From: an uncultured Patescibacteria group bacterium
GTDB lineage: Bacteria > Patescibacteriota > Microgenomatia > UBA1400 > PJMF01
NCBI GenBank assembly: GCA_905478415.1
Contig: CAJQIG010000002.1
Location: 186,699-250,698 of the forward strand
Reading direction: 5' to 3'
DNA length: 64,000 nt
Part shown: positions 22-28,079 of the stretch, piece by piece
How positions within the stretch are numbered: the first letter of the stretch is position 1
Layout of the letters: each line of letters starts with the position of its first letter
The notes under the pieces: model-generated
Databases searched by the model: none
The model's input: the letters and a program-made list of their open reading frames with translations, nothing else
Told to the model about the DNA's origin: nothing
Program-made: the position numbers and the translations under genes

Positions 22-1356
22 ATGCAGGGACTTTCTGTCGAGAGAAGGTCTGCTATTTTGCTTGGAATTTTAAGAAGTTTTCAGCAGCATGCTGGTTCTC
101 AGCTGCTTTGGCAGCACATGGTTGTGGATGTATTGATGCAGTTTGTCTCTGGAACAAAGTTGCTACAGATGGATGTTTTTATTCCCGAAGAATTCAAGCT
201 ATTAGCTCTCTCAGCCAAAGAAAACATGCCTCCTACCAGTAAGTTTTTTGTGAGAGATGCTTTGAAAGCATCAGATAGGTTGGGAGAGTATACGGGGATT
301 GGTCCCTCTCGAGCTGCAGCATCAACAGCTACAGTGCATCCATTGCAAAAAGTAGAAGATGCACCAGGAGAGTACAGCGCTGTATCTAAAACAATCCACG
401 AACATGCGGAGGCACACTTGGATGAAGAGTTTGCAGCATTCCGAGGAGCACTGACCTACCTAGCTCAAGAACTGGGTCTGCAACTGAACGTAGAGGGAAT
501 ACTCCAAGAGTTGCAGCAGCTTGTAAGGGTTGAACTGGATCCATTTGTTGAGTCGGCAAATACCAAAGTACTTCGTAAGTTGCGCAGTCGTCATACAGCT
601 GATTGGGTGCAAGTGCCAGAGATTATTTTTCGTTCTGATAAGCATATCGAGATGAGTATGGCGCCAGGCTATTCACTTCAGTCATTATTGGAAGGTGATG
701 TGCCCGAACAATATAAGCAAGTTAATTGGAAACAAGTATGTTTCTTGATAGTCAGGGATTACTTTCAGCAAGTGTTTGAGTTTGGCATGTTTAATGCTGA
801 TGAACACGCGGGGAATGTATTTGTTCGTTTAAAAGCGTCTTTAAAAAAGCTCATAAAGAGTTCTTCTGCAGACGAATCACCACCTGTAACAGTAATTGAT
901 CATGGGGCAGTGGGGTTTGCTGGATCTCAAGAGAGAAAGAAAGTGTTCTTTTTGTTTGGACTCGGGTTCGAACTTCAGGATGAGTCGATGGTATCCGAGG
1001 CTCTTTTTAACATACTCACAAATAGTGAGTTCAAATCTGCAGAGGCAGTGAAACAACGATTACGAGAATTGCCTGGAACGTTATTTGAGAATGCAGTTGA
1101 ACTACTTGTGCTTTCAGGTAAGGGTGCGGACCTGATTTTATTTGCCAAAGGATTGGCAGCTTTATTTCCACTCATCGAAAAGTTAAGTTTATTTGACAAA
1201 ATGCGAATTGCTATGCCGTATATTCGCAAACTTGGTTTAGAGCCGACGCTCATTAGAAATACTGGTTCTTTAACTCGGTCAGTACTTTCACAAGTATTAA
1301 CAGGTATTCGAGAGAAAAAACAATCATCTCTTGATAAGAACAAAAGTAAAACATAA
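22..1356 (+). CDS. UbiB/ABC1-family atypical kinase-like protein, probably 5'-truncated by window edge
   Basis: Motif FNADEHAGNVFV ... VIDHGAVGF matches the ABC1/UbiB HADxHPGN...DFG catalytic core. The frame is open back to base 1. Confidence 0.45.
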   Translation: MQGLSVERRSAILLGILRSFQQHAGSQLLWQHMVVDVLMQFVSGTKLLQMDVFIPEEFKLLALSAKENMPPTSKFFVRDALKASDRLGEYTGIGPSRAAASTATVHPLQKVEDAPGEYSAVSKTIHEHAEAHLDEEFAAFRGALTYLAQELGLQLNVEGILQELQQLVRVELDPFVESANTKVLRKLRSRHTADWVQVPEIIFRSDKHIEMSMAPGYSLQSLLEGDVPEQYKQVNWKQVCFLIVRDYFQQVFEFGMFNADEHAGNVFVRLKASLKKLIKSSSADESPPVTVIDHGAVGFAGSQERKKVFFLFGLGFELQDESMVSEALFNILTNSEFKSAEAVKQRLRELPGTLFENAVELLVLSGKGADLILFAKGLAALFPLIEKLSLFDKMRIAMPYIRKLGLEPTLIRNTGSLTRSVLSQVLTGIREKKQSSLDKNKSKT

Positions 1357-1527
1357 AAGTATGTAGTAAATATGCATTGTTTTTTTTAAAAACATGCGCT
1401 ATAGTTCCAAAAGTATGTATAACTTTGTTTGCTTTACCAAGCGCCACACTATTCAACTCTCAATTACAAGGGGTTGCGCTGTGGAAGTTGGAAAATAAAA
1501 CAACAAAGAAACACAACAAAGCGCGCA

Positions 1528-1551
1528 ACCTCCTAAAACAGGAGGTTTTTT
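1528..1551 (+). terminator. Rho-independent terminator-like hairpin (CCTCCT-aaaaca-GGAGG + T6)
   Basis: Perfect 5-6 bp GC stem followed by TTTTTT, downstream of the first CDS. Confidence 0.4.
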
Positions 1552-2232
1552 AATAGTAAAAAGTAGCTGCGCGCGAGGAAAGGAAGTATGAAAGATGGCG
1601 AACACATGCCATATTCACCCGAAGGATTGAAAGCATTAGCTTCAACCTTGAAGATTCACAAGTCTCTTCTATGGTTCGATGCCACTAATAGCCGGATTGC
1701 CTTCGCTCAACTTCCATCGCGCGAGTATCAACAAAGCTACGAAGAGGAAGAAGAGTAGCTGAAGGGCAAACTCTTTAGCTGTGCCAAGAGGGCACAGTAG
1801 ATAAAATGAGATGCGCAGTAGCAAGAGTAGAATATGAAAGGGATTGTATCGGTCGGGCGCGTCGCGCCAAGCAAGAGGCTTGGCGCAGTACGCCTTCACT
1901 CTGAGCTTTGTGACAGAGAAGATGATTAACTTGGAACACTTAGAACAAGGCACGAACTATTCATTACTGGGGGGCGACCCCACAGGTGAGTTGTATGTAT
2001 TGTTTACTGGCATTGTTGGTGAAGAAAACGACTCACTCATAGATGACTTTATTGCAGTTGGGATCATTCGATCTTTGCTTCAAAGTGGAGAGTATGTAGC
2101 TATTTCACTGGATACAGAAAATACTGAAACCTCAACTAATTCTTTTGAAGAAATGCGCTCTATGCAGTAGTGTGATATACTAGAACCTAGAATGTATAGA
2201 CGAAATAGAACCACGACCACCTCAACTATCAG

Positions 2233-2294
2233 CCCCATGTAGGGAAGAGAGGTTTCGTGTCAAAAAGCAGCTCTCCCACATGGGGGAGTTTTTA
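2233..2294 (+). terminator. Long imperfect hairpin + U-run just upstream of thrS (terminator or attenuator)
   Basis: CCCCATGTAGGGAAGAGAG...CTCTCCCACATGGGGG followed by AGTTTTTATT. No T-box sequence was recognised. Confidence 0.35.
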
Positions 2295-2358
2295 TTAGAC
2301 ACAAGTCTATTTTATTAATTGTTCAGAATGAACTATACTATCCAAGAAGGAATCACAC

Positions 2359-4143
2359 ATGTCAGACGCACATAACCACAATCACAACCACCTAGCAGAA
2401 CTCGAAGCTTTGGCTCAACTCCGTCACTCTGCCGCTCATTTACTTGCAGCCGCAGTACTCGAACTGTATCCTGATGCCAAACCAACTATTGGTCCAGCAA
2501 CTGATGATGGTTTTTATTACGATTTCGATTTTAGTGAGCCAATCTCAGAGAATGACTTACCTAAAATTGAGAAAAAAATGAAAGAGCTCGTCAAACATTG
2601 GCGAGAGTTTTCTCACCAAGTTGTAACTGCCGATGAAGCCCTAGAACTCTATAAAAAGAACGAATATAAGTCTGAACTTATTCGAGAATTTGCTGGAGAG
2701 AATAGAACACTCACACTCTACATGGCTGGCAATTTCACAGATCTTTGTCGAGGTGGGCACGTTGAGAGTCCTAAGAAAGAACTCAAATTTTTTAAGTTAC
2801 TCTCACTAGCTGGTGCCTATTGGCGTGGGAGCGAAGAGAACAAAATGTTGACTCGTATTTATGGAACTGCTTTCTTCAGCAAAGATGAACTCAAAGAAAA
2901 CCTGCAAATGCGAGAGGATGCAAAAGCTCGTGATCATCGAAAACTGGGTAAAGAACTAGGATTATTTGTCTTTTCGGATACTATTGGCAAAGGTCTGCCG
3001 CTTTGGACAGAAAAGGGGACAACAATCCGCCGAGAACTGGAACGCTTTATTACTGACGAAGAAATTCGTCGTGGTTATAAGCATGTGATGACTCCTGATA
3101 TTGCTAATCTTGATCTGTATCGAAAATCTGGTCACTATCCGTACTACAAGGATTCGATGTATGCGCCAATCAAAATTGAGGATGAAGAGTACATGCTTCG
3201 GCCAATGACCTGTCCACATCATTTTGAGTTATATTCTTCGGCTCCACATTCGTATCGAGAATTGCCAATGCGTATTGCCGAACTAGCTAAGTTGTACCGC
3301 TACGAGCGTTCTGGCGAACTATCTGGATTGATTCGTGTCAGAAGCTTCTGTTTAGCCGATTCTCACATCATCTGTAGCAAAGACCAAGCTAAGGCCGAAA
3401 TTAATGGTGTTCTGGACCTGATAGAGTATATTTCAAGTGTCTTTGGTCTCGAAAAAGGTAAAAACTATTCATATCGCTTGTCACTCGGTGATCGCTCAGA
3501 TGAAAAGAAGTACTTTAAGGATGACGCTTCGTGGGATTTTGCCGAAAAAGTGCTTCGTCAGGTTCTGATTGAGCGAGATGCTGTGTATGTTGAAGCCGAA
3601 GGAGAAGCTGCTTTCTACGGGCCAAAAATTGATGTGCAGATGCGTAATGTTAATGGAAAAGAAGACACAGCTTTTACGGTTCAGTACGACTTTGTTATGC
3701 CAAAGCGATTTGACCTTAAGTTTACAAATGAAGCTGGAGAGGAGGAGCAGCCAGTAGTGGTTCACAGATCTTCGATTGGTGCGATCGAGCGCAGTATTGC
3801 GTTTTTGATCGAACACTATGCCGGTAAGTTCCCGGTTTGGCTTTCGCCAACTCAGGTAAGCATCTTGCCAATTTCTGATAATTATTTGGAGTATGCCGAA
3901 GAAGTCAAAATTGCACTGGCTCGACACAATGTGCGCGTTCACCTTGATGACAGGTCGGAGCGACTCCAAGCCAAAATTCGCCATGCCCAGATGGAACAGA
4001 TTCCGTACATGCTGGTTGTCGGTGAAAAAGAAGTTGCCGATGGCACGGTGGCCGTGCGTCACCGAGACAAAAAAGAGCAGCAAGTGATGAAAATTGCCGA
4101 CTTTGTTTCCTTGGTAGTTTCTGAAATTGCTGAAAAGAAGTAA
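2359..4143 (+). CDS. thrS: Threonyl-tRNA synthetase
   Basis: 594 aa with a class II aaRS core, an N-terminal editing/TGS-like region and a C-terminal anticodon-binding domain. RBS AAGGAA lies 7 nt upstream. Confidence 0.93.
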   Translation: MSDAHNHNHNHLAELEALAQLRHSAAHLLAAAVLELYPDAKPTIGPATDDGFYYDFDFSEPISENDLPKIEKKMKELVKHWREFSHQVVTADEALELYKKNEYKSELIREFAGENRTLTLYMAGNFTDLCRGGHVESPKKELKFFKLLSLAGAYWRGSEENKMLTRIYGTAFFSKDELKENLQMREDAKARDHRKLGKELGLFVFSDTIGKGLPLWTEKGTTIRRELERFITDEEIRRGYKHVMTPDIANLDLYRKSGHYPYYKDSMYAPIKIEDEEYMLRPMTCPHHFELYSSAPHSYRELPMRIAELAKLYRYERSGELSGLIRVRSFCLADSHIICSKDQAKAEINGVLDLIEYISSVFGLEKGKNYSYRLSLGDRSDEKKYFKDDASWDFAEKVLRQVLIERDAVYVEAEGEAAFYGPKIDVQMRNVNGKEDTAFTVQYDFVMPKRFDLKFTNEAGEEEQPVVVHRSSIGAIERSIAFLIEHYAGKFPVWLSPTQVSILPISDNYLEYAEEVKIALARHNVRVHLDDRSERLQAKIRHAQMEQIPYMLVVGEKEVADGTVAVRHRDKKEQQVMKIADFVSLVVSEIAEKK

Positions 4144-4164
4144 CTTTTGTATAGAATTGAATAA

Positions 4165-4199
4165 AAAAGCCTCGACGCGCTGCGTCGGGGCTTTTTACT
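4165..4199 (+). terminator. thrS terminator
   Basis: GCCTCGACGC-gctg-CGTCGGGGC followed by TTTTT. Confidence 0.6.
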
Positions 4200-4225
4200 G
4201 TGTACTACATAATTAAGACAAAAAA

Positions 4226-4252
4226 ACGCCAAGGTAGATCCTTGGCGTTTGA
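4226..4252 (-). terminator. Terminator for the minus-strand gene 4261-4584
   Basis: CGCCAAGG-tagatc-CCTTGGCG with a T-run on the minus strand. Confidence 0.5.
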
Positions 4253-4260
4253 CATACGTA

Positions 4261-4584
4261 TTATTGATAAAGTTGGCAGACGGCGACTTCGTCACCGATC
4301 TGCCAGGTGCAGACGCCAGTGACATCCTGGTCACTGGTCGAGACAACAAATTGTCTCAGGATAACTTCACCGTCACCGCTCGGTAGAACGGTTTTGTACA
4401 AAGTTACCGCGTTTTCAGAAACTGAAACTCCTGTTTCCTGCTCGAAGAATGTAGCAACTTGAGCCTTGTCAGGTTCGAGCTGACTGACTTGAGATAGAAT
4501 AACAACAGACCATATTCTGATTCCAATAAGAGCCAGTAGCAATACTACAATCAATCCAATCAAGAGGTCTCGTCGATTATACAT
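4261..4584 (-). CDS. Small membrane-anchored hypothetical protein
   Basis: 107 aa with an N-terminal TM helix (LLIGLIVVLLLALIGIRIW). Confidence 0.45.
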   Translation of the reverse strand: MYNRRDLLIGLIVVLLLALIGIRIWSVVILSQVSQLEPDKAQVATFFEQETGVSVSENAVTLYKTVLPSGDGEVILRQFVVSTSDQDVTGVCTWQIGDEVAVCQLYQ

Positions 4585-4751
4585 ATTTCTTCATCCCTTT
4601 ATCCAATTTTAAAAAAACTGGGTAAATAAATACGTTTATTAAAGAGTGGCTATTCCAACTTAAATTAAAATAATACAAGTTGAAACAACATCCTATATTA
4701 TATACAAAAATGACAAAAAGTCAAGTGAAATAAATAAAAATGACAGAGAAA

Positions 4752-4779
4752 AGCCCCAGCATGATTGCCGGGGCTTTTT
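4752..4779. terminator. Bidirectional terminator hairpin
   Basis: AGCCCCAGC...GCCGGGGCT flanked by an A-run and a T-run. Confidence 0.45.
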
Positions 4780-4788
4780 AACAAGTAA

Positions 4789-5211
4789 CTAATCATCGGT
4801 GGTACACACCATTTTTTCGCGGCGCGTACCCCAAATGCATGTACCAATAATTTTATTTCGACCTTCTACATGCACTTCGAAGTCCTGGGAACAGCTGTTG
4901 CCGCCGGTGATTTGGTGGCATGCTTGTTCTAGAAGCACAACGTTCTCAGGCTCGATACCATAATTGGTATACCTTGTCTCGTTACCTAGATAGGTAGCAA
5001 TCCTGGCTTCATTTGGCATTTGGCCAAAGTAGTTACTGACTGCGTTTGTGACAAAGAGTGTTCCTAGTAGGGCGGCCAAAATAATCGAAAGAATAAAGAG
5101 TCCAACGGCTAGATCTTGAACAAACCACTGCCAAATTTTTTGAATTTTGACTTGGCCTTTTTCAAGAGTCTTTAAAACTTTCAGTTTTAACTCATATTTT
5201 TTTTGTTTCAT
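4789..5211 (-). CDS. Membrane-anchored hypothetical protein
   Basis: 140 aa with one TM helix. Its start overlaps the stop of the upstream gene in ATGA. Confidence 0.45.
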   Translation of the reverse strand: MKQKKYELKLKVLKTLEKGQVKIQKIWQWFVQDLAVGLFILSIILAALLGTLFVTNAVSNYFGQMPNEARIATYLGNETRYTNYGIEPENVVLLEQACHQITGGNSCSQDFEVHVEGRNKIIGTCIWGTRREKMVCTTDD

Positions 5212-5776: not shown

Positions 5777-6640
5777 ATGCAAGAAAATAAAAAAATACTT
5801 TCTATTGGTTCACTGGTTATCGATAGAATTAACGGTAAGAAAAGACCTGGTGGAGAGGCTACTAATGTAGCGGTCAATACACAACGGTTAGGAGTAGATG
5901 CTTCGTTGTTAACAGTTGCTGCGCGCAGCCCAGAGTCGGTTGTGTTGCAGGAGGAAATTGAGGCTTTGGGTGTTTCATTTTTTGCATTATCACAGGTTTT
6001 AGAAAAACTTCCAGAATGTCACATCTATATGGGTGCAGATGGGAAAGAAGAAGGATATGATTGGATTGATAATGGTTTAGAAAGTGCTTATGCAACTTCT
6101 GAAGTTCCTGTTTCACTTGTTCAAGCATACCAAACAGTTTATTTAGCAGCTTGTGAACCAGGATTCGCGTACCGTGTTTCTCAACAGGTGCAATCTCATC
6201 AAACTGTCGTTTTTAATCCTGGCACAAGAATATATGAAGATCCAGGCATGTTTATGCAGACACATAGGCAAAGCTCTATCACATTTATGAATCAATCGGA
6301 GTTCGATCATTTGCAGGTTAAAAAATATGTTAGGACAGAAGAGGATCTTTTATATTCTTCAGAACAGATGGTTATTATTACGGCTGGAAAAAATGGAGCT
6401 CGGTTAGTAACTAAAGAGGGCATAAAAAACTATCCAGCTCAGTTGGTGCCAGCTATTGATGAAACGGGAGCGGGTGACTCCTTTGCTTCTGCAGTGATTT
6501 GGGCTTTAGGTAGAGGTTTAGAAATGGATGCGGCAATGGTCTCAGCAAGCATACTAGCATCACTCGTTGTTCAAAGGGTTGGAGCGCAAATAGATGCAGA
6601 AACGGCTGCTCACTTTATACAGCAAATTGTGAATCAGTAG
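5777..6640 (+). CDS. PfkB-family carbohydrate/ribokinase-like kinase
   Basis: C-terminal DETGAGDSFASAV PfkB signature. The internal Met at 5777 gives a typical ribokinase N-terminus (KKILSIGSLVID). The ORF opens at 5666. Confidence 0.75.
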   Translation: MQENKKILSIGSLVIDRINGKKRPGGEATNVAVNTQRLGVDASLLTVAARSPESVVLQEEIEALGVSFFALSQVLEKLPECHIYMGADGKEEGYDWIDNGLESAYATSEVPVSLVQAYQTVYLAACEPGFAYRVSQQVQSHQTVVFNPGTRIYEDPGMFMQTHRQSSITFMNQSEFDHLQVKKYVRTEEDLLYSSEQMVIITAGKNGARLVTKEGIKNYPAQLVPAIDETGAGDSFASAVIWALGRGLEMDAAMVSASILASLVVQRVGAQIDAETAAHFIQQIVNQ

Positions 6641-6655
6641 TTACTGGATCAAATT

Positions 6656-15743: not shown

Positions 15744-15929
15744 ACTATGTAATAGACTGCATATACATAGTATCGAATTTTTGGCATCTTGTTTAGTCTG
15801 AATTTTTGTCGAGAGAGTATTGGGTGGGAAAAATGTTACAATGTATGAAGAAGTGTGATACTTTTAAGTATAGTGTAAAATGAAATAGTTAAAGACTATT
15901 ATTTTGCGTAACAATAAAAAGGAGAGCAT

Positions 15930-17742: not shown

Positions 17743-17815
17743 GCCGAAGTGGCTCAGTGGTAGAGCACCATCTTGGTAAGATGGGGGTCACGGGTTCGAT
17801 TCCCGTCTTCGGCTC
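17743..17815 (+). tRNA. tRNA-Thr (anticodon GGT)
   Basis: Cloverleaf with acceptor GCCGAAG/CTTCGGC, anticodon loop TTGGTAA and T-loop GGTTCGATTCC. Confidence 0.9.
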
Positions 17816-17941
17816 AGAGTGGGTAGTTAACTTGAAAAGTTGCCGATTTGCTCAAGATCAAACTATGTCGAGGTGATATAATTTGTGAAGGTTTCTGGAT
17901 GAATAGTGCAGAGATTTTGTTTTTTAATGTCTTTGAAAGAT

Positions 17942-18023
17942 GCCAGGTTACTCAAGCGGTCAACGAGGACAGACTGTAAATCTGTTGGCTCAGCCTTCGT
18001 AGGTTCGAATCCTACACCTGGCA
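17942..18023 (+). tRNA. tRNA-Tyr (anticodon GTA), long variable arm
   Basis: Acceptor GCCAGGT/ACCTGGC, anticodon loop CTGTAAA, T-loop GGTTCGAATCC. Confidence 0.9.
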
Positions 18024-18041
18024 CAACTATAATAGTAAGGT

Positions 18042-18115
18042 GCCACCTTAGCTCAGTTGGTTAGAGCGACGGTTTTGTAAACCGTAGGTCCAGGGTTCGA
18101 ATCCCTGAGGTGGCT
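18042..18115 (+). tRNA. tRNA-Thr (anticodon TGT)
   Basis: Acceptor GCCACCT/AGGTGGC, anticodon loop TTTGTAA, T-loop GGTTCGAATCC. Confidence 0.9.
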
Positions 18116-18192
18116 CAAGCATTTTGACTGGCGTATTTACGCATGGTCATTCGTTTGATATAATACCCGTCTGAAAAGAAAAGAAAGTTAGT

Positions 18193-19124: not shown

Positions 19125-19735
19125 AGCGAGGAAACTCCGGACAGTTCATCCATTGGAGCGAAGCGATAGTGTCCGGGGATGAACGCCTCATAGCACCGAA
19201 GGTGCTATGATGTCATCATGAAAACCCGGAAGTTAAATCATAGTGTGTATAAACACCAATATCACTTGGTATGGGGGACGAAATATCGTCGGAAATTTTT
19301 CAAGAAGTATGTTGGAGATGAATTTGAACATCTTCTATACGAATTAGTTAAAAAGAAGTATCCAGATTTATATATCGAAGCGGTTAATACAGACCAGGAT
19401 CATGTACATATACAGATAGAAATACCACCAACATATGCAGTGTCAGACGTAGTAAAGCGAATAAAATGGCATAGTAGTGTGTACCTCAAGAAGAAGTTCA
19501 AATTTATCGATAGAATGTATATAAATGGAAACATTTGGGGTGTGGGATATTACTCATCAACCATAGGATTGGACGAAGAAACAATTAGAAAATACATAGA
19601 ATATCAGGGGAAAGAAGAAGTCCTCCAGACACCGAGTCTATTTGAATAAAATTTTCATGAGAACTTGACCTTTAGGTCATTGCGAAGCAAATAGGAAACC
19701 CCGGACATTGGCGTAGCTGTCCGGGGAGGACGTCA
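19125..19735 (+). mobile_element. IS200/IS605-family insertion sequence (tnpA only) with subterminal hairpins
   Basis: Left-end hairpin CCGGACA...TGTCCGG (19137-19176) and right-end hairpin CCCCGGACA-ttggcgtagc-TGTCCGGGG (19699-19726) flank the Y1 HUH transposase gene. Confidence 0.65.
19218..19649 (+). CDS. tnpA: IS200-like Y1 (HUH) transposase TnpA
   Basis: 143 aa, HUH motif HVHIQIEI, C-terminal catalytic Tyr region (RKYIEYQGKEE), typical IS200 size. Confidence 0.85.
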   Translation: MKTRKLNHSVYKHQYHLVWGTKYRRKFFKKYVGDEFEHLLYELVKKKYPDLYIEAVNTDQDHVHIQIEIPPTYAVSDVVKRIKWHSSVYLKKKFKFIDRMYINGNIWGVGYYSSTIGLDEETIRKYIEYQGKEEVLQTPSLFE

Positions 19736-19791: not shown

Positions 19792-21108
19792 TTATTTTAC
19801 CGATTTTACAACTTTTATGATATGTTGGGCGCCGTGTGTGAGTGACGTGGGGAGGGCGTGAGCGTTGAGCATAGCTTGTTCAATCCATGAATGTTGTTTA
19901 CCACGGGTTGAAAGTAAGCTTTCGAGCTGAGGCACAATTGAGTCCAAGACAATTCGACGACCAATTTGTTTTTGTTCGAATACTTCACGAATTCGTTCTT
20001 CCCACGGTCCCCATTCGTCCAGTGTCAGCAAAAAGCTGCCGGCAGCAGCTGCATCGTAGGCCATATCGCCGGAAGGTTTGGTGATAAAACCATCGGCCCA
20101 TGGGAAGCCGTAGGTTTGGAGTTTTTCATTCGCGTCTACAATCTGTGGATGGTAGAGAACCCGGAGTGGGGCATTTTTATCTGTTTCATCAAATACTTTG
20201 ACACGGTGTTTTTTTGCGAGTTCGAGTACACTTTTATAAATATCTTCGTGCGTGCCACAGTAGATGAGCAAACTGAGTTTTCGGGTTTTTCTTCTAAGCT
20301 CTGGCAGTAGTTGTTCGAGCGCAATCAGTAGTTCTGGCTTGTTGGTTCCAAGTCCGCCAGTAGTGAGGCAAAGTTTGAGAATTCCACTGCGGTGAGGATG
20401 TTTTGTTTCTTTGGCTTTGAGGGTGCGAGGGTCGATGGGGGCGCCAGTGACAAAAATTCTACTTGGTTCGGCCGCTATCCCAAGCAACGCTGCTTTTTCG
20501 AGAAACTCTGTTTTGGTATTTTCATCAAACACACAGAAGTACATATTTTTTCTATATGAGTTGGTGACGTACTCATCCCGAACATGAGGATCAGTAATGA
20601 CCTGGACGATAGTTTTACCTTGAGAAGCCAAAATATTTCCTGCCGCAATATGAAGTGACAGAATAGGATGTTTAATTCCGGCTGTGACGTATAAAAGTGG
20701 GGGAGTAATACTATCAAGAATCGGTAGCTTACTACGTCCAAACCTGTCAATAAAGGCTTTAATGGTCTGGAGAATACTGTACCGAGCAATAGTCTTGCCA
20801 ATTTCTTCGGTGAGCACAATTGATTTCCAATCTTTTTTGGAAACATAATTCGTTGGGTCAAGGACCCAAGCTTTGGTGTGATCAACTTTTTTGCCCCAAG
20901 CCGCCGTAGCGATTGCTAGAGCCATGGAGTAGTGAGCTCTAGAGAACACAATATCGGGGGTATCGTCCCGAGCGGGGAGGCCATGCATTTCTTTTAGATC
21001 CTCTTTGTAGCTGCTCGAAACGGTGATGATTGGGACTTCAGTTTTTTCGAGAAAGAGCTTATCTTCTTTGAGTGTTTTAATGAGGAAGGGGTCGAATAGT
21101 TCGGGCAT
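19792..21108 (-). CDS. Putative GT-B glycosyltransferase (MGDG-synthase/UgtP-like), low confidence
   Basis: 438 aa with a two-domain layout. Weak resemblance to GT28-type lipid glycosyltransferases. No stronger motif recognised. Confidence 0.3.
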   Translation of the reverse strand: MPELFDPFLIKTLKEDKLFLEKTEVPIITVSSSYKEDLKEMHGLPARDDTPDIVFSRAHYSMALAIATAAWGKKVDHTKAWVLDPTNYVSKKDWKSIVLTEEIGKTIARYSILQTIKAFIDRFGRSKLPILDSITPPLLYVTAGIKHPILSLHIAAGNILASQGKTIVQVITDPHVRDEYVTNSYRKNMYFCVFDENTKTEFLEKAALLGIAAEPSRIFVTGAPIDPRTLKAKETKHPHRSGILKLCLTTGGLGTNKPELLIALEQLLPELRRKTRKLSLLIYCGTHEDIYKSVLELAKKHRVKVFDETDKNAPLRVLYHPQIVDANEKLQTYGFPWADGFITKPSGDMAYDAAAAGSFLLTLDEWGPWEERIREVFEQKQIGRRIVLDSIVPQLESLLSTRGKQHSWIEQAMLNAHALPTSLTHGAQHIIKVVKSVK

Positions 21109-23497: not shown

Positions 23498-24115
23498 ATG
23501 AGTGAGAACCCCCTGGATAGGATAAAATATAGGCAGTTCCAAAACACCTTAGAGAACAGAGGTGGAAGCGAGACGATTATTCGTAGTATGTCTAACATAC
23601 TAAAAAAGATGGCGGAAAATAACGTTTCGACAGTATTTTTTCTTGATCGATCAGCAAGACCTTTGGCCTATTTAGCCAAGGAAATGTGGCAGGTTATGTA
23701 CCAGGGACGTGAATTTCCCGCGGTACGATTCATAAATATTGGAAAAGAGACGAGTCAAAAAGATATTAATCAATCTGGTGGAGTAGGTGATATCTATTCG
23801 ATTCCAGACGATGGCACTATAATGATTATTGACGAATTTGTGATGCATGGGCACTCTCTCAGGAGAGCCAAAGAGCTCTTAGATAAGTCTTTTCCTAATA
23901 GAGAATTTATTACCATTTCACCGTACTTACATGAATTTAGAGAGTTGCCGGCGATCTTCAAGGGTATTGAAGACAGGTCAGTTGAAGGTCCGATGAAGTT
24001 TGTTGCGCAGCCTCACTCAGATCAAAGTTCAGTTGAAGCACGAATAAAATTGAGGAAATACCTCAAGGAGTTTGTCAAAAATAATGCTGAAAAAATTAAG
24101 GAGACTACGGAGTGA
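23498..24115 (+). CDS. Phosphoribosyltransferase-domain protein
   Basis: IMIIDEFVMHGHSLRRA matches the type I PRTase PRPP-binding loop. It ends 10 bp before repeat R1. Confidence 0.45.
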   Translation: MSENPLDRIKYRQFQNTLENRGGSETIIRSMSNILKKMAENNVSTVFFLDRSARPLAYLAKEMWQVMYQGREFPAVRFINIGKETSQKDINQSGGVGDIYSIPDDGTIMIIDEFVMHGHSLRRAKELLDKSFPNREFITISPYLHEFRELPAIFKGIEDRSVEGPMKFVAQPHSDQSSVEARIKLRKYLKEFVKNNAEKIKETTE

Positions 24116-24125
24116 CTAATTTTGC

Positions 24126-24154
24126 GGGGACTAGTGACGGATGTTCGAACCTAT
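24126..24154 (+). repeat. Cassette-boundary repeat R1 (GGGGACTAGTGACGGATGTTCGAACCTAT), tRNA-Trp 3'-end-like
   Basis: One of five direct copies of a ~29 bp motif. It abuts the stop codon of the 24156 gene. Confidence 0.7.
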
Positions 24155-24155
24155 A

Positions 24156-24419
24156 TCAGTATTGATCATGGTTTACTAAATCAAAAAAGATGTAAACATC
24201 ATCTTCTTTAATTGCCAATGCTCTCAAATCTCCTTTTATTCGAATAGCATACTGACTAGATCTTTCACCTTTTAATCTATGCAAACGCAACCCCATATGA
24301 TAGGGATTTTCTTTAAATTTTTTAAACTGTTTTCTAAAAATTTTATCCAAAAGAGGATTTTTATTCTTAAACTTTACTACTTTTCTCTTAAATGACTCTG
24401 TATAAACAACTTTTATCAT
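24156..24419 (-). CDS. Type II toxin, RelE/YafQ family (mRNA interferase)
   Basis: 87 aa. LRLHRLKGERSSQYAIRIKGDLRALAIKEDDVYIFFDLVNHDQY resembles YafQ/RelE. 4 bp overlap with the upstream antitoxin. Confidence 0.7.
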   Translation of the reverse strand: MIKVVYTESFKRKVVKFKNKNPLLDKIFRKQFKKFKENPYHMGLRLHRLKGERSSQYAIRIKGDLRALAIKEDDVYIFFDLVNHDQY

Positions 24420-24673
24420 AAAGAGTCAAAAAATTCATCAACATTAATCATTTCGTGGGTTTTTCCCAAACGATGCTCTTCCAAAGCCTTTAAGCCACTT
24501 TCTTCTGTTTTCTTACTCATTTTAAAAGTTGGAACTTCATTTTTCAAAATTTCTTCTGAGGCTTTACTTATAAAAAAACGAATAGTTTTGGGTAAATTAT
24601 ACCCAAATTGAGAACCATAATTTTTTAAAAGGGTAGCTTCTTGAGTTGTAAGAGTTAATTGAACTTTAGTCAT
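24416..24673 (-). CDS. Type II antitoxin, DinJ/RelB-like
   Basis: 85 aa with a C-terminus like DinJ (...LKALEEHRLGKTHEMINVDEFFDSL), upstream of and overlapping the toxin. Confidence 0.6.
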   Translation of the reverse strand: MTKVQLTLTTQEATLLKNYGSQFGYNLPKTIRFFISKASEEILKNEVPTFKMSKKTEESGLKALEEHRLGKTHEMINVDEFFDSL

Positions 24674-24740
24674 ATGTATTAGTATTATATTATAAAATCA
24701 TTGTTTTGTAAATACTTTAATACTACTTTTGATATTTCTT

Positions 24741-24769
24741 GGGGATTAGTGAAGGATGTTCGAACCTAT
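24741..24769 (+). repeat. Cassette-boundary repeat R2 (GGGGATTAGTGAAGGATGTTCGAACCTAT)
   Basis: Overlaps the TAG stop (24766-24768) of the toxin gene. Confidence 0.7.
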
Positions 24770-25044
24770 TTGTACACCTGATCATGAGTTCCAAAACTAA
24801 AAAAAACAATTTTAGACATGTTTCCATCCTGATTATAGTAATAAAGTAATCGATGGGACATATCTACAGAAATACTCCAACTCTCTCTTTGACCTCCGCT
24901 CAATTTGTGGAGTCGTAATGACGGATGATTTTTGTTCTGTTCGAACAATACTAACTGCTTTTTAATTTTTGTGAATAACTGTGTATCGTTTTTTTTAACT
25001 CTTTGCAATTGCTTCAAACATTTTGGTGAAAACGCAATTTCCAT
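24766..25044 (-). CDS. Type II toxin, YafQ/RelE family
   Basis: HPSLRLHKLSGGQRESWSISVDMSHRLLYYY ... FFSFGTHDQVYK parallels the YafQ core and C-terminus. Confidence 0.75.
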   Translation of the reverse strand: MEIAFSPKCLKQLQRVKKNDTQLFTKIKKQLVLFEQNKNHPSLRLHKLSGGQRESWSISVDMSHRLLYYYNQDGNMSKIVFFSFGTHDQVYK

Positions 25045-25046
25045 TG

Positions 25047-25307
25047 CTATAGATCCTGGAGCAACTTGCCAACGTCATTAGTTTGGATTAAATCTCCAGT
25101 TTTTTCTGCCTCTACAGCCTCTTTAAGATCGTTAGTTGATTGACTGGACATTTCAAAAACAGGATAGTCAACGTCTTGAACATCATTTATCACTAAATTT
25201 CTGATGTAAGCTGATAAGCTAAGACCGTATTTATTAGCTTTAGTCTGCAAGTAACCTTGCAACTGGACTGGTAATGTAACTCTAATTTGAGTAGTTTGTG
25301 TTTGCAT
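25047..25307 (-). CDS. Type II antitoxin, DinJ-like
   Basis: LSLSAYIRNLVINDV...DYPVFEMS...DLKEAVEAEKTGDL matches the DinJ pattern, immediately upstream of the toxin. Confidence 0.65.
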   Translation of the reverse strand: MQTQTTQIRVTLPVQLQGYLQTKANKYGLSLSAYIRNLVINDVQDVDYPVFEMSSQSTNDLKEAVEAEKTGDLIQTNDVGKLLQDL

Positions 25308-25372
25308 AAAGCCATTATAGTCTAATTAAAGCATTTATCAAGTACTAATCAAGGCTATTTTGTGTACTTTTC

Positions 25373-25401
25373 AGGGCCTAGTGAAAAATGTTGGAACCCA
25401 T
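25373..25401 (+). repeat. Cassette-boundary repeat R3 (AGGGCCTAGTGAAAAATGTTGGAACCCAT)
   Basis: Retains CAGGGCC and GAACCC blocks identical to the tRNA-Trp 3' end at 27623-27646. Confidence 0.65.
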
Positions 25402-25429
25402 ATCAACTGTAAGTACATGACTTCATTTG

Positions 25430-26032
25430 CTATTTATCAAAAACAACAACAATGCCATCAATGCTTTTCTTAAATTCAGAACATCTTTGATCATTATATC
25501 TTTGGGTGATTTTATCCATTACTTTGGAATCAACCCCGTTAAATTCCCAAGAATCACTTAGCCTGCTGCTAAAAAATAATGTATCGAATTTAATGACAAT
25601 TTTAAGTGTTTTTAAACTATCAGGTGAAAGATTAAAAAACCAATGAATTAAATCATTAAAAGCAGCATGATGACAACCTTCTACAGGAGTTGTTTCCCCA
25701 CCCATTAACATTACTTCCAATAAACTTGCCCCATCTTTTGACAATAATGCCGTTAAGTCTTCGGGGTTGATAATATCATAGTCATGACCATATTTTTTTC
25801 GTCTTTCTAAAGCAATATTGGGATGATTGTTGAGATAGCTAGAGACAACATGTGGAGCATTTACATATAGACCCCAATGTGCATCTTTTGACTTAAAACC
25901 TGTTACACATATATTTAAATTATACCTTTGATCATCAAAAATTGCTTGCATAGCCTCTCGAGCAGGTTCTTTATAATAAACTTCTCTAATAGGGTGTATT
26001 GCTAAAGCAACGCTTAGATTTTCATTTAACAT
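25430..26032 (-). CDS. Hypothetical protein (cassette gene)
   Basis: 200 aa, no recognised motif, AT-rich. Confidence 0.45.
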   Translation of the reverse strand: MLNENLSVALAIHPIREVYYKEPAREAMQAIFDDQRYNLNICVTGFKSKDAHWGLYVNAPHVVSSYLNNHPNIALERRKKYGHDYDIINPEDLTALLSKDGASLLEVMLMGGETTPVEGCHHAAFNDLIHWFFNLSPDSLKTLKIVIKFDTLFFSSRLSDSWEFNGVDSKVMDKITQRYNDQRCSEFKKSIDGIVVVFDK

Positions 26033-26108
26033 ATTTACCTCTATTCTCTTCTAAAATATCTGTTTATATTTTTAATTCAGCATTCAGCAAACTTATATAA
26101 TAAATACA

Positions 26109-26141
26109 AGGGGCTTGTTACTTGAGGGATGTTCGAACCTA
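26109..26141 (+). repeat. Cassette-boundary repeat R4 (GGGGCTTGTTACTTGAGGGATGTTCGAACCTAT, diverged copy with insertion)
   Basis: Shares the GGATGTTCGAACCTAT 3' half. It abuts the stop of the methyltransferase gene. Coordinates are accurate to about 1 bp. Confidence 0.55.
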
Positions 26142-26152
26142 TTTTAAGCTCG

Positions 26153-26806
26153 TCACTTCTTCCTAGCAACCACCACAAAATATTTTAATACTCCAAAATA
26201 GCGAAGTGTTTTTTCTTCAACTACTATATTGCCCGCAGCCTTTATGTAATTTGATAGCTCTTTTTGTTTATACATCACATCATAAGGATGATCTAATATT
26301 ATTCTAAGAAGTTTACCTAGCGGAGATTCAAACGTTTCAATTGAAAAATCCTCCATAATTATCAGTCCCTTAGGTTTTAAAGTTCTCGTTATCTCTTTAA
26401 CTGCTTTCTTCCATTCTGGAATGTGATGAAGAACTCCAAAGTCAAACACTGCATCAAAGGTATTGTCTTTGAACGGCAATTTTGTCGTACTTGCTACTTG
26501 AAAATCAATGTTTTTATTAGAATACTTTCCTTGAGCGATACTAATCATTTTTGAATCAAGGTCAGTAGCAATGATTTTTCTGGGAGAAAAGTGCTTCATG
26601 ATAAGTTGACTACCATATCCACTACCACATCCAATTTCTAATGTCTTATTTATCTTCCCTGGATTAACTAACTTTCTGAGTCGTGGTATCTCCAAAGTAC
26701 TTTGAAACAACCGACGCATTGGGTTATTCATTAGTAGGAATTCAATAGTATTGAGAATCATGAATGTAGTATACCATGTGATTAAAAAGAAACCATTTAT
26801 AGGCAA
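26153..26806 (-). CDS. Class I SAM-dependent methyltransferase
   Basis: Motif I LEIGCGSGYGS and post-I/II motifs (FDAVFDFGVLHHIP). Confidence 0.8.
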   Translation of the reverse strand: MPINGFFLITWYTTFMILNTIEFLLMNNPMRRLFQSTLEIPRLRKLVNPGKINKTLEIGCGSGYGSQLIMKHFSPRKIIATDLDSKMISIAQGKYSNKNIDFQVASTTKLPFKDNTFDAVFDFGVLHHIPEWKKAVKEITRTLKPKGLIIMEDFSIETFESPLGKLLRIILDHPYDVMYKQKELSNYIKAAGNIVVEEKTLRYFGVLKYFVVVARKK

Positions 26807-26821
26807 ATATTGCTGTTTTGC

Positions 26822-26850
26822 AGGGATTAGTGAACTATGTTGGAACCTAT
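26822..26850 (+). repeat. Cassette-boundary repeat R5 (AGGGATTAGTGAACTATGTTGGAACCTAT)
   Basis: Preceded by TGC, giving TGCAGGG, which is identical to the tRNA-Trp 3' terminus on this strand (27622-27628). Confidence 0.65.
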
Positions 26851-26851
26851 T

Positions 26852-27178
26852 TTACCTTTCTCGTAAAACAAAACTCAATTTAATACTATCGTTTAACTCA
26901 ACTTTTTCTTTGTTTCTAACCTTTACTGGTAATGCAATGAAGTGTGTACCATCACCCATAGGGAGAAATGATGTTTTCCAACTACTGCTACCTACTTTTG
27001 CAGTTATAGCTACCAAACCCCTATCTAAAAGATGTTTAGTCTCATTCGTATATTTTTTAGGAACTCTCACATAATGCCAACCCTTTTTTTGGGGAAATAG
27101 TTCTACTTTTCCAGATATTGCAAATTTTTTCTTGGTTAATAATGGGGTCAAATTAGACATATAAAAAATATAGCCCAA
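26852..27178 (-). CDS. DUF1905-family small protein
   Basis: GWHYVRVP...GLVAI...WKTSFLPMGDGTHFIALP matches the DUF1905 pattern. Confidence 0.5.
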   Translation of the reverse strand: MGYIFYMSNLTPLLTKKKFAISGKVELFPQKKGWHYVRVPKKYTNETKHLLDRGLVAITAKVGSSSWKTSFLPMGDGTHFIALPVKVRNKEKVELNDSIKLSFVLRER

Positions 27179-27180
27179 AT

Positions 27181-27510
27181 TTACATCTCATGAACAGGAT
27201 AAACACTCACCGTACTACCATCGTTATCCATTATCACTGGATGATCTTTTAATAAAGACTGGGCTGCTTCTAGGCTCTCAGCTTGAACTATTCCATATCC
27301 TGTTACATCATCTTCTTGAAGCTTTGAACCATCAACAGAAGTCACATGTTGAGGCCCAACTGGATTTCCAAAATCAACTACAGCATCAACATGAGTTTCT
27401 TTCCACTTCATCCAAACACCCATAACTCCTTGTACTTCTTCTTCTGACATTGACGCAAATTTTTCCATTGCTTCTTTAGGTGAGTGATAAATTAGAAGAA
27501 ACTTTTTCAT
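27181..27510 (-). CDS. YciI-like / Dabb-fold small protein (putative)
   Basis: 109 aa with a C-terminal ...GIVQAESLEAAQSLLKDHPV... motif typical of YCII-related proteins. Confidence 0.35.
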   Translation of the reverse strand: MKKFLLIYHSPKEAMEKFASMSEEEVQGVMGVWMKWKETHVDAVVDFGNPVGPQHVTSVDGSKLQEDDVTGYGIVQAESLEAAQSLLKDHPVIMDNDGSTVSVYPVHEM

Positions 27511-27623
27511 AGCGTGATCCTTTACTACATGTTTTTATTCTTTATCTTAACATAATTTAGAACCTAATTTATTGGGGATAAGTTAACAAAAAAAGAACTA
27601 TAAATAGCTCTAATTCAAAACTG

Positions 27624-27694
27624 CAGGGCCAGAGGGAATCGAACCCCCGTCAAAGGTTTTGGAGACCTCTATTCTACCGCTGAACTATGGCCCT
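27624..27694 (-). tRNA. tRNA-Trp (anticodon CCA)
   Basis: 71 nt cloverleaf with acceptor AGGGCCA/TGGCCCT, anticodon loop CTCCAAA, T-arm GGGGGTTCGATTCCCTC and discriminator G. An extended -10 TGATACAAT lies upstream on the minus strand. Confidence 0.9.
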
Positions 27695-27807: not shown

Positions 27808-27836
27808 CTTGACATAACATTAGTTATAGGATATAA
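27808..27836 (+). promoter_or_regulatory. Consensus promoter TTGACA-N17-TATAAT preceding a ~237 nt structured leader
   Basis: Exact hexamers with a 17 nt spacer. The leader contains hairpins including GTGAAACA...TGTTTCAC followed by a U-rich tract. Confidence 0.45.
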
Positions 27837-28079
27837 TGAAAAGTGTTGTGAGAGCGTACAGCAGACACTTCGTCTGCAACTACCTCGAGCAATACTGAAC
27901 CTTAACAGAATACTTACTTTTGTCTCCTTTAGACAGAAAGGACCGCGTATTTGTTGGAATCACCATAGGGTGAAACAGAGGTGTTACTCGAGAGAGTGGC
28001 GCTTGTGTTTCACTCTATTGTTTTGAGACCAGCGATTTTGTTGGTTTCCTTTTTGTTAATATTTTAAGGAGATAGAAAA

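Follow-up and report, generated by a model that had tools for sequence, protein, structure and literature searches.

A tandem array of recombinase-less mini-cassettes at a Patescibacteria tRNA-Trp gene, probably built by a large serine recombinase acting in trans

Patescibacteria (the candidate phyla radiation, CPR) have tiny genomes with few recognised mobile elements, which raises the question of how they acquire accessory genes. Integron cassettes are bounded by attC sites, which are imperfect palindromes (R''-L''...L'-R') of 55-140 bp and fold in single-stranded form; the cassettes themselves are mostly promoterless and driven from the Pc promoter. In the staphylococcal cassette chromosome (SCC, SCCmec), large serine recombinases (LSRs) of the Ccr type build tandem cassettes at the 3' end of rlmH, and these include recombinase-less cassettes moved in trans (PMC11470126). 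Here we describe a locus that shares features with both systems, within a 64-kb stretch of DNA from an uncultured Patescibacteria group bacterium (contig CAJQIG010000002.1; this whole stretch is hereafter called the window). We conclude that window positions 24123-27694 are probably an SCC-like or integron-like tandem array of recombinase-less mini-cassettes at a tRNA-Trp gene, built by an LSR acting in trans.

The array has a simple anatomy. Five direct repeats split the region 3' of tRNA-Trp into five cassettes of 615-803 bp, all on the minus strand (Table 1). Read on that strand, in the sense of the tRNA, the repeat consensus is AT-AGGTTCSAACATCCTTCACTAG-TCCCTGCA; the repeat coordinates that we give comprise AT, a 22-nt module and an 8-nt extension. 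All eight array genes lie on the minus strand, with stop codons inside a repeat or 0-28 nt away. An initial annotation of this DNA had already recognised five repeats located at gene ends and marking off minus-strand units of 600-750 bp, and we see the same on direct reading, by repeat finding and in a mismatch-tolerant scan. It was also right that the array is more AT-rich than its surroundings (31-34% GC vs ~42% in the flanks).

The repeat is a two-part site. A constant 22-nt module, AGGTTCNAACATCNTTCACTAG, is followed by ~8-9 nt that copy the 3' end of the adjoining tRNA. The Trp-type extension TCCCTGCA adjoins tRNA-Trp genes ending (G/T)CCCTGC-A, and the Asn-type extension ACGGAGCCA adjoins tRNA-Asn genes ending GCGGAGCCA (the tRNA is within the locus in L052 and L060; 12 further loci have the same extension). 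Further extension types include GGTGAACCA and GGGACCC. The module, by contrast with these variable ends, is identical in tRNA-Asn arrays and inside LSR genes, which are described below. The conserved part of the site spans ~34 nt, is non-palindromic and ends 4-6 nt past the extension; an alignment of sites across loci reveals no inverted module to the right of the extension.

How much of this site comes from the tRNA? The initial annotation had derived the whole repeat from tRNA-Trp. The last 7-8 nt do copy the tRNA end, but the 22-nt module, being the same at tRNA-Asn and in LSR genes, does not share that origin. In the window repeat the match to the tRNA-Trp 3' end is limited to the last 7 nt, CCCTGCA, and the GGTTCGA of the repeat matches the T-loop at a 5-nt offset. 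We tried and rejected the idea that the repeat is a decayed tRNA-Trp 3' half: its placement by MAFFT is ambiguous, only the terminal 7-8 nt and the offset T-loop box match, no Rfam model recognises the repeats, and the tRNA model misses them even at E<=1. Nor is there a steady decay with distance from the tRNA, as had been suggested. Identity to CCCTGCA over the last 7 nt is 7/7 in R5, 6/7 in R3, 4/7 in R2 and 6/7 in R1, and R4 is degenerate, so that the series is not monotonic.

Repeats at the 3' ends of genes might be generic elements, whether repetitive extragenic palindromic (REP)-like, terminator or regulatory, or they might be the ends of non-autonomous derivatives of the insertion sequence (IS) family IS200/IS605, moved by the Y1 transposase encoded 4.5 kb away (143 aa; Pfam Y1_Tnp, E 9e-31). 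The initial annotation had recognised that a generic element would undo its case. However, within the window the copies are confined to the array apart from two weak matches, and they form no hairpin. A 16-mer core with at most 3 mismatches has 6 matches in the 64 kb: four of the five array copies (R3, with more than 3 mismatches, is missed) and two elsewhere, at 15928 and 55787, each with 3 mismatches. Shuffled sequence is expected to yield 0.39 matches, and 0/100 shuffles reach 6. Across genomes, moreover, the repeats form co-oriented arrays adjoined by a tRNA wherever the upstream end was captured, and the sites have no subterminal hairpins of the IS200/IS605-derived PATE (palindrome-associated transposable element) type. 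The Y1 transposase, which lies between a tRNA Thr-Tyr-Thr cluster and a gene for a 438-aa protein, is absent from all other array loci and is therefore probably an unrelated IS. A 143-aa open reading frame (ORF) in locus L002 that appeared syntenic with it proved spurious. We give a REP-like or IS200/IS605 origin almost no weight.

Arrays of this kind are widespread. A degenerate repeat, scanned against one genome for each species, returned 16 loci, with the full repeat in 12; nine of the 12 are labelled Patescibacteria (Paceibacterota, Pacebacteria, Amesbacteria, Lloydbacteria) and three gammaproteobacterial. The gammaproteobacterial labels look mistaken, to judge from L009 and L014, which have the window's Patescibacteria-type neighbour gene. 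A metagenome scan with the 22-nt core added 44 further loci. The copies form co-oriented arrays, up to seven per 8 kb in genome loci and up to nine in metagenome loci. In those genome loci whose upstream end was captured, the array is directly preceded by a same-strand tRNA-Trp. Over all loci, tRNA-Trp heads the array in at least 11 independent cases; tRNA-Asn adjoins the array in 2-3 loci, and several array loci have no tRNA in the fetched stretch. Among 73 non-redundant cassettes the median length is 933 bp (range 222-4397), and most hold 1-2 genes. Over all loci, 103 cassette ORFs are co-oriented with the tRNA vs 29 on the opposite strand, and the TAG at the site edge serves as a stop codon in 22/68 cassettes.

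The core idea of the initial annotation, that the array is a product of serial site-specific insertion at the tRNA-Trp 3' end, holds: the units are too small for autonomy, no recombinase lies near, and the arrangement is widespread in Patescibacteria. Full-text literature searches, including one with the site sequence, returned no description of the repeat, the arrays, the module or the LSR/tRNA arrangement. Specifically, we could not find described a modular tRNA-addressable site, an attP inside a recombinase coding end, or mini-cassette arrays in Patescibacteria. This is apparently an undescribed cassette system, widespread in reduced Patescibacteria genomes.

The cassettes have sharp boundaries and move horizontally. 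Window cassette 2 can be aligned over its full length with cassettes in L013, L008 and L011, and the similarity runs from just past the upstream site's ...CCCTGC(A) to the cassette's own site. A shared hairpin-type cassette start comes right after tRNA-Trp in L003 and after repeats in L011, L014 and L016, which places the junction at CCCTGC|A. Proteins of the window cassettes are 76-92% identical to cassette proteins elsewhere, at different array positions (cassette 1 proteins share 92% and 80% identity with those of a cassette in L008/L044/L050). Because these genomes share only 50-65% identity in the conserved 438-aa core neighbour protein, the closer match of the cassette proteins indicates horizontal movement of cassettes. 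Between lineages, the arrays differ completely.

These observations bear on a rival account, in which autonomous islands of a tycheposon- or prophage-like kind, targeted to the tRNA by a tyrosine integrase, integrated serially and later decayed, leaving a few cargo genes between partial copies of the tRNA. Such islands would lie 3' of a tRNA, with repeats in tRNA orientation and low GC, as here, and tycheposon islands are likewise stacks of elements with partial tRNAs between them. However, the window repeat is not a partial copy of tRNA-Trp: tRNA-Asn arrays and LSR genes share its module, which the tRNA model misses. There are no integrase fragments either. Sharp conserved boundaries, with intact homologous cassettes elsewhere, would not be expected from random decay. 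We consider decayed islands very unlikely. A phage or plasmid origin of the site was also rejected. The site has no match in PLSDB or INPHARED, and a scan of IMG/VR with the 22-nt module and a degenerate version of it gave none; a scan with a different pattern gave two chance matches that lack the rest of the repeat. Only distant LSRs are present in IMG/VR.

Nor is the site attC-like. Single-strand DNA folding of the five sites with their flanks, on both strands, gave no hairpin (z -0.47 to +0.85), and we rejected attC-like folding on these grounds. A second rival holds that the array is an integron remnant or CALIN (cluster of attC sites lacking integron-integrases), its attC-bounded cassettes moved by an IntI tyrosine integrase encoded elsewhere. 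Small co-oriented cassettes of 1-2 genes, a site over the stop codon, toxin-antitoxin (TA) cassettes and the lack of an adjacent recombinase would all suit an integron, but the sites are only ~30 bp long and are conserved in sequence, not structure, with no R''/L''-L'/R' symmetry. The cassettes have their own promoters, the extension copies the end of the adjoining tRNA, and tyrosine recombinases are missing from the window and from the array loci among the first 62. An integron origin is, in our estimate, highly improbable. The initial annotation had likened the array to captured integron cassettes or satellites. Mobile recombinase-less cassettes are indeed what we find, but the mechanism is not integron-like: there is no attC hairpin, and the linked enzyme is a serine recombinase.

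Two further features accompany some of the sites. Many are followed by a hairpin with a 17-bp stem, AAAATAAAATAAATCCCGAATGGGATTTCTTTTATTTT, and then by ATGGGGTYGATAGGTGAAT. In a subset of cassettes the module is immediately preceded by a conserved 35-nt element, TTATAAGCCCAAAACCACCTCCCAACTCGAGGAAAA.

No recombinase gene stands beside the window array, as the initial annotation had said. We searched with phmmer (XerD, an LSR N-terminus and the Y1 transposase as queries), with an LSR profile run on every ORF of 25 aa or longer, with Pfam on candidate ORFs and with motif regular expressions, and surveyed 150 locus proteins. Pfam, the motif expressions, phmmer and the LSR profile found no tyrosine or serine recombinase in the 64-kb window. 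The array loci among the first 62 loci likewise yielded no tyrosine recombinase; the single match, L017, was a chance viral contig without the repeat. Taken together, the searches of window and arrays yielded only the window's IS200-like TnpA and one LSR, in L024.

This LSR carries the site within its own gene. The L024 protein, the sole serine recombinase from a motif scan of the locus ORFs, has Resolvase, Recombinase and Zn_ribbon_recom domains. Its 3' end passes antisense through a perfect module, and a second module-ended cassette, with AbiEii, comes next; two module-ended cassettes thus abut the LSR 3' end. In L068, three modules delimit two ~4-kb cassettes that abut the LSR (one AbiEii, one resembling a cyclic-oligonucleotide-based antiphage signalling system, CBASS). 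Read antisense, extension and module (TGG TTC ACC CTA GTG AAG GAT GTT CGA ACC T) encode W F T L V K D V R T.

The motif recurs near the C-terminus of many related proteins. A database search with the L024 LSR gave thousands of homologues, and we counted C-terminal motifs in the 120 best (50-93% identity, including proteins named Patescibacteria and Parcubacteria). The motif [LIVMFT]-[LIVATK]-x-[DENQ]-[VIL]-R-[TS]-[FYWL], typically LVxDVRTF, stands near residue 521 in 70 of these 120, mostly with W-x-x before it and variable tails after it. Read antisense, CCA gives the W and the tRNA acceptor end gives x-x; in P0003, a Patescibacteria protein, WLR matches the Asn-type extension. At the DNA level, the module lies inside the LSR 3' end in L024, L067, L068 and L069, with diverged versions in L063 and L066.

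In L066-L069 and L084 (50-54% GC) the LSR lies at the edge of a backbone that resembles an integrative and conjugative element (ICE). In L067-L069 this backbone starts with a tyrosine integrase, beside a tRNA in the fetched stretch, and continues with TraG-like, Replic_Relax, RuvC-like and HTH_3 genes (HTH_3 was not called in L069). L066 and L084 have parts of this set, and the Patescibacteria contig L063 has only HTH_3 and two small ORFs before the LSR. Variable defence genes lie beyond the LSR 3' end.

If attP lies in the last codons of the LSR gene and the P' side holds the LSR body, an integrated LSR should be fused antisense to a tRNA 3' end and should bear a translated tRNA tail. Such fusions exist. 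Tails of the ...R(R/D/E)SNP type close six of the 120 best homologues, and three of these were traced to their loci; each ORF runs into an opposite-strand tRNA, exactly at the tRNA 3' end (Table 1). The L085 junction, ...SIS|WYRRRDLNP, is the antisense of ...GGTCAAGTCCCTCCTCCGGTACCA, and attP-form relatives of the L085 LSR read W-Y-x-LVDEVRTY. These antisense fusions indicate that the LSR family integrates at tRNA 3' ends, and the members at the exact 3' ends of tRNA-Arg, -Leu and -Glu would represent integration at the proposed attB. As read from the genes, the recombinase protein is different in its two states: the LVxDVRTF... of the free or array-flanked form is swapped for an antisense-tRNA tail in the tRNA-integrated form. 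No phage-type large serine integrase is known to use a tRNA T-loop box or to have attP within its own C-terminal codons.

We also observed an inverted half-module, (A/G)GTTCGAAC + N10 + (G/C)TTG, ~40-140 nt upstream of the LSR start in five divergent loci. The L024 copy ends a small ORF, ...KVRTS. The inverted half-module may be an operator or a second recombinase-binding site.

The spacing within the sites follows a rule. GTTCRA stands 18 nt from the junction in 13/13 array-adjoining tRNAs (Trp, Asn) vs 23 nt in 99/102 modules. The attB sites of serine integrases have the zinc-ribbon-domain (ZD) motif 5 bp nearer the crossover than attP sites do (PMC3783163), and the difference between our two spacings equals this shift. 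We propose that the 3' part of tRNA-Trp is an attB-type half-site.

A mechanism can be outlined from these features. Each cassette comprises its own 5' region or promoter, 1-2 genes and the ~30-bp site, which would be the attP-type left half-site of an LSR family that integrates exactly at tRNA 3' ends. The T-loop box GGTTCRA, found in every tRNA gene, would be the ZD motif of the attB half-site. The module would hold GGTTCRA 5 bp farther from the crossover, as attP does, and the 5 bp between GGTTCGAA and the extension would be the spacing that sets attP apart from attB. We infer that the crossover dinucleotide lies within the shared extension: CC of CCCTGCA, and GG of CGGAGCCA (attP motif positions 16-24, attB 11-19). 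A circular cassette would recombine with the tRNA end, regenerating the tRNA and moving older cassettes distally. Because no LSR is encoded in the window, the enzyme would act in trans. Each cassette would use its own promoter for expression, and the array would be stabilised by its TA cassettes.

Several points weigh against an LSR as the builder of the window array. There is no LSR in ~40 Patescibacteria-type array loci, as there is none in the window, and the LSR loci with a perfect module, L024 and L068, come from non-Patescibacteria-like DNA (48-52% GC). A Trp-type LSR, with the C-terminus LQG-LVKDVRT, is absent among the 120 best homologues; a 42-aa chimeric profile found none, and a representative search with P0003 gave no LQG type. 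The right half-site is unconserved and has no dyad symmetry, and the window copies R2 and R4 are partly degenerate. Either of the two, the protein motif or the DNA site, could have arisen as a by-product of the other. Canonical LSRs are not known to recombine attP with attL, as repeated insertion at one tRNA would need. Repeated insertion at an occupied tRNA therefore needs a relaxed, Ccr-like enzyme or another route.

The array is also invariant in its population, and it may be a fossil that is now inactive. Gene order is identical wherever the window population was assembled (10 places in 10 samples, the whole array in 2), with no strain-level cassette variability as far as the contigs reach. 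The initial annotation had counted an identical order in related genomes as evidence against cassette capture. The order is indeed fixed at strain level, but only there, since the arrays of different lineages are entirely different. A low-coverage contig, L077 (ERZ1764457 NODE_6591), ends 20 nt upstream of tRNA-Trp (~window 27714), and several other contigs of the window population break inside the array. These breaks could be a coverage effect or could conceal heterogeneity.

An unchanging array would also suit a third rival, in which no dedicated recombinase acts now and the sites (30-36 bp) are portable homology, exchanged by natural transformation and RecA. The sites are almost identical across hosts, and DprA is encoded in the window. 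In the L014 array, from a 1.08-Mb Patescibacteria genome, an identical two-cassette unit occurs in tandem at 4268-4911 and 6000-6643, and this site-bounded duplication is consistent with recombination between sites. However, RecA cannot explain exact insertion at a tRNA end with 7-8 nt shared, nor tRNA-specific extensions, nor the 5-bp offset rule, nor a module inside LSR genes that are fused to tRNA ends. We consider RecA exchange unlikely as the explanation of the array, and it may be a secondary process at conserved sites. Serial insertion by an LSR acting in trans is the reading that we prefer.

The window cassettes encode small accessory functions (Table 1). Two carry a toxin gene of the RelE/YafQ superfamily with a small partner gene upstream. 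The initial annotation had called them YafQ/DinJ pairs; the toxin half of that assignment stands, with scores under the curated cut-offs of Pfam and NCBIfam, but the partners have no DinJ match in either database. Both TA cassettes have an internal sigma-70-like promoter that matches the consensus at 11/12 positions and is kept in homologous cassettes; in the alignment of cassette 2 with L013, L008 and L011 it reads TTGATA-N16/17-TATAAT. Many cassettes elsewhere begin with a terminator-like hairpin. Read-through from the tRNA as a Pc-like promoter, an earlier suggestion, is thus not needed.

Some features around the array deserve mention. On the plus strand is a perfect sigma-70 promoter (TTGACA-17-TATAAT, 12/12), separated from a 188-aa gene by ~240 nt without a convincing ORF. 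This stretch has no Rfam match at E<=1 and could be a leader or small RNA. In L002, L003, L005/L037 and L006, tRNA-Thr, -Tyr, -Thr and tRNA-Trp (with its array) are co-oriented and 0.8-3 kb apart, and in L009 a single tRNA-Thr, 3.7 kb away from tRNA-Trp, is co-oriented with it. The window has tRNA-Trp and the array inverted and ~9.5 kb displaced relative to the tRNA Thr-Tyr-Thr cluster. The gene for the 438-aa protein is found near the tRNA region in L002, L003, L005/L037, L009, L014 and L055. Motifs in this protein (438-473 aa across loci) suggest a GT-B-type glycosyltransferase. We rejected it as a hidden recombinase on account of these motifs, the lack of a Pfam match and its separation from the array in the window.

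Table 1. Coordinates of features in the window, and the loci or proteins in which related features occur
Feature	Position or locus	Strand	Details
tRNA-Trp(CCA)	27623-27694	-	ARAGORN; Rfam 67.5 bits
T-loop box of tRNA-Trp	27639-27645	-	GGTTCGA
Junction of tRNA-Trp	27622-27628	-	CCCTGCA
Cassette 5, tRNA-proximal	26819..27621	-	803 bp; YCII-like gene, DUF1905 gene, R5
YCII-like gene	27181-27510	-	E 1.6e-4
DUF1905 gene	26852-27178	-	E 2e-13
R5	26819-26850	-	abuts stop; 1 mismatch vs 22-nt module; complete extension TCCCTGCA
Cassette 4	26111..26818	-	708 bp; methyltransferase gene, degenerate R4
Class I S-adenosylmethionine (SAM)-dependent methyltransferase	26153-26806	-	Pfam Methyltransf_11, E 8e-26
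R4	26111-26142	-	10 nt from stop; retains AGGTTCGAACATCCCTCA, the 5' 18 nt only; 3' part degenerate
Cassette 3	25370..26110	-	741 bp; gene for 200-aa protein, R3
200-aa protein gene	25430-26032	-	no family match
R3	25370-25401	-	28 nt from stop; extension GCCCTGAA
Cassette 2	24738..25369	-	632 bp; promoter, antitoxin-like and toxin genes, R2
Cassette 2 promoter	25341-25314	-	sigma-70-like, 11/12
Cassette 2 antitoxin-like gene	25047-25307	-	small partner upstream of toxin
Cassette 2 RelE/YafQ-like toxin	24766-25044	-	stop TAG within R2
R2	24738-24769	-	provides TAG stop of cassette 2 toxin gene
Cassette 1, distal	24123..24737	-	615 bp; promoter, antitoxin-like and toxin genes, R1
Cassette 1 promoter	24712-24684	-	sigma-70-like, 11/12
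Cassette 1 antitoxin-like gene	24416-24673	-	small partner upstream of toxin
Cassette 1 RelE/YafQ-like toxin	24156-24419	-	stop abuts R1
R1	24123-24154	-	abuts toxin-gene stop; also stop of convergent chromosomal gene 23498-24115
tRNA Thr-Tyr-Thr cluster	17743-18116
Y1 transposase (IS200/IS605-type)	19218-19649	+	probably unrelated IS
438-aa protein gene	19792-21108	-	no Pfam match
Sigma-70 promoter	27809-27837	+	12/12
Stretch between this promoter and 188-aa gene	27838-28079
Arrays headed by tRNA-Trp	W (window), L002, L003, L005/L037, L006, L009, L013/L049/L057, L014, L020, L032, L055
LSR-tRNA fusions	L084; L085/L086; L087		tRNA-Arg; tRNA-Leu; tRNA-Glu
LSR homologues with tRNA-antisense-type tails	P0023, P0028, P0052, P0062, P0071, P0113		e.g. 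RRESNPQP
Inverted half-module	L024 1336-1349; L063 ~9929; L066 and L067 ~9953; L069 9862
35-nt element	L003 ~7063, L005 ~350, L008 ~1260 and 2620, L014 ~3117, L016 ~140

The locus points to a dedicated, phylum-wide platform for gene capture at tRNA ends, with cassettes common to distant hosts, and the 22-nt module is a simple annotation marker for accessory-gene arrays in metagenome bins. If the LSR link is true, the arrays would be the first of an integron-like kind to be run at tRNA genes by a serine recombinase. Their att sites would be naturally modular, with a constant T-loop handle and a programmable 8-nt address, which is of interest for retargetable serine integrases, and integration would rewrite the recombinase's own C-terminus. 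A wider proposal is one that we rate as possible, if short of probable: that this LSR clade is the serine counterpart of the integron, using the T-loop box as a handle and a short swappable extension to address any tRNA 3' end, and stockpiling mini-cassettes (TA, methyltransferase, Fic, defence) in Patescibacteria and in ICE-like elements of other phyla. Such a system would be retargetable, and the swap of C-terminus might be a switch of directionality or activity.

How, then, does the array compare with described systems? It shares with integrons and CALINs a fixed insertion point, a one-way array of small cassettes and a site that often lies over the stop codon; in both, arrays can be stable within a population and rich in TA modules. 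By contrast, there is no IntI and no folded attC here, promoters lie within the cassettes, insertion is at a tRNA end and the linked recombinase is a serine enzyme. The tycheposons of Prochlorococcus are similar in that tRNA genes seed variable islands of stacked elements with att repeats in streamlined genomes. However, tycheposons are autonomous, with tyrosine recombinases and partial tRNAs of ~40 nt, whereas the units here are recombinase-less and copy 7-9 nt of the tRNA. The A118/LI (Listeria integrase), Bxb1 and phiC31 integrases have the same Resolvase, Recombinase and Zn ribbon domains, and their attP likewise has its distal motif 5 bp farther out than attB. Those enzymes differ in using single attB x attP pairs with two recognisable half-sites, and they build no arrays.

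SCC and SCCmec differ from the array in scale and address. The target here is a tRNA 3' end and not rlmH (orfX), and the cassettes are 0.2-4 kb long vs 20-70 kb. Moreover, the modular site serves both tRNA-Trp and tRNA-Asn, with related LSRs at tRNA-Leu, -Arg and -Glu, and the proposed attP lies in the LSR 3' coding end. Yet the two have much in common: integration at the extreme 3' end of a conserved housekeeping gene, short direct repeats between tandem cassettes, recombinase-less cassettes, cargo of the defence and TA type, and an enzyme of the LSR class. Beyond the shared LSR domains, the resemblance between the arrays is one of logic only.

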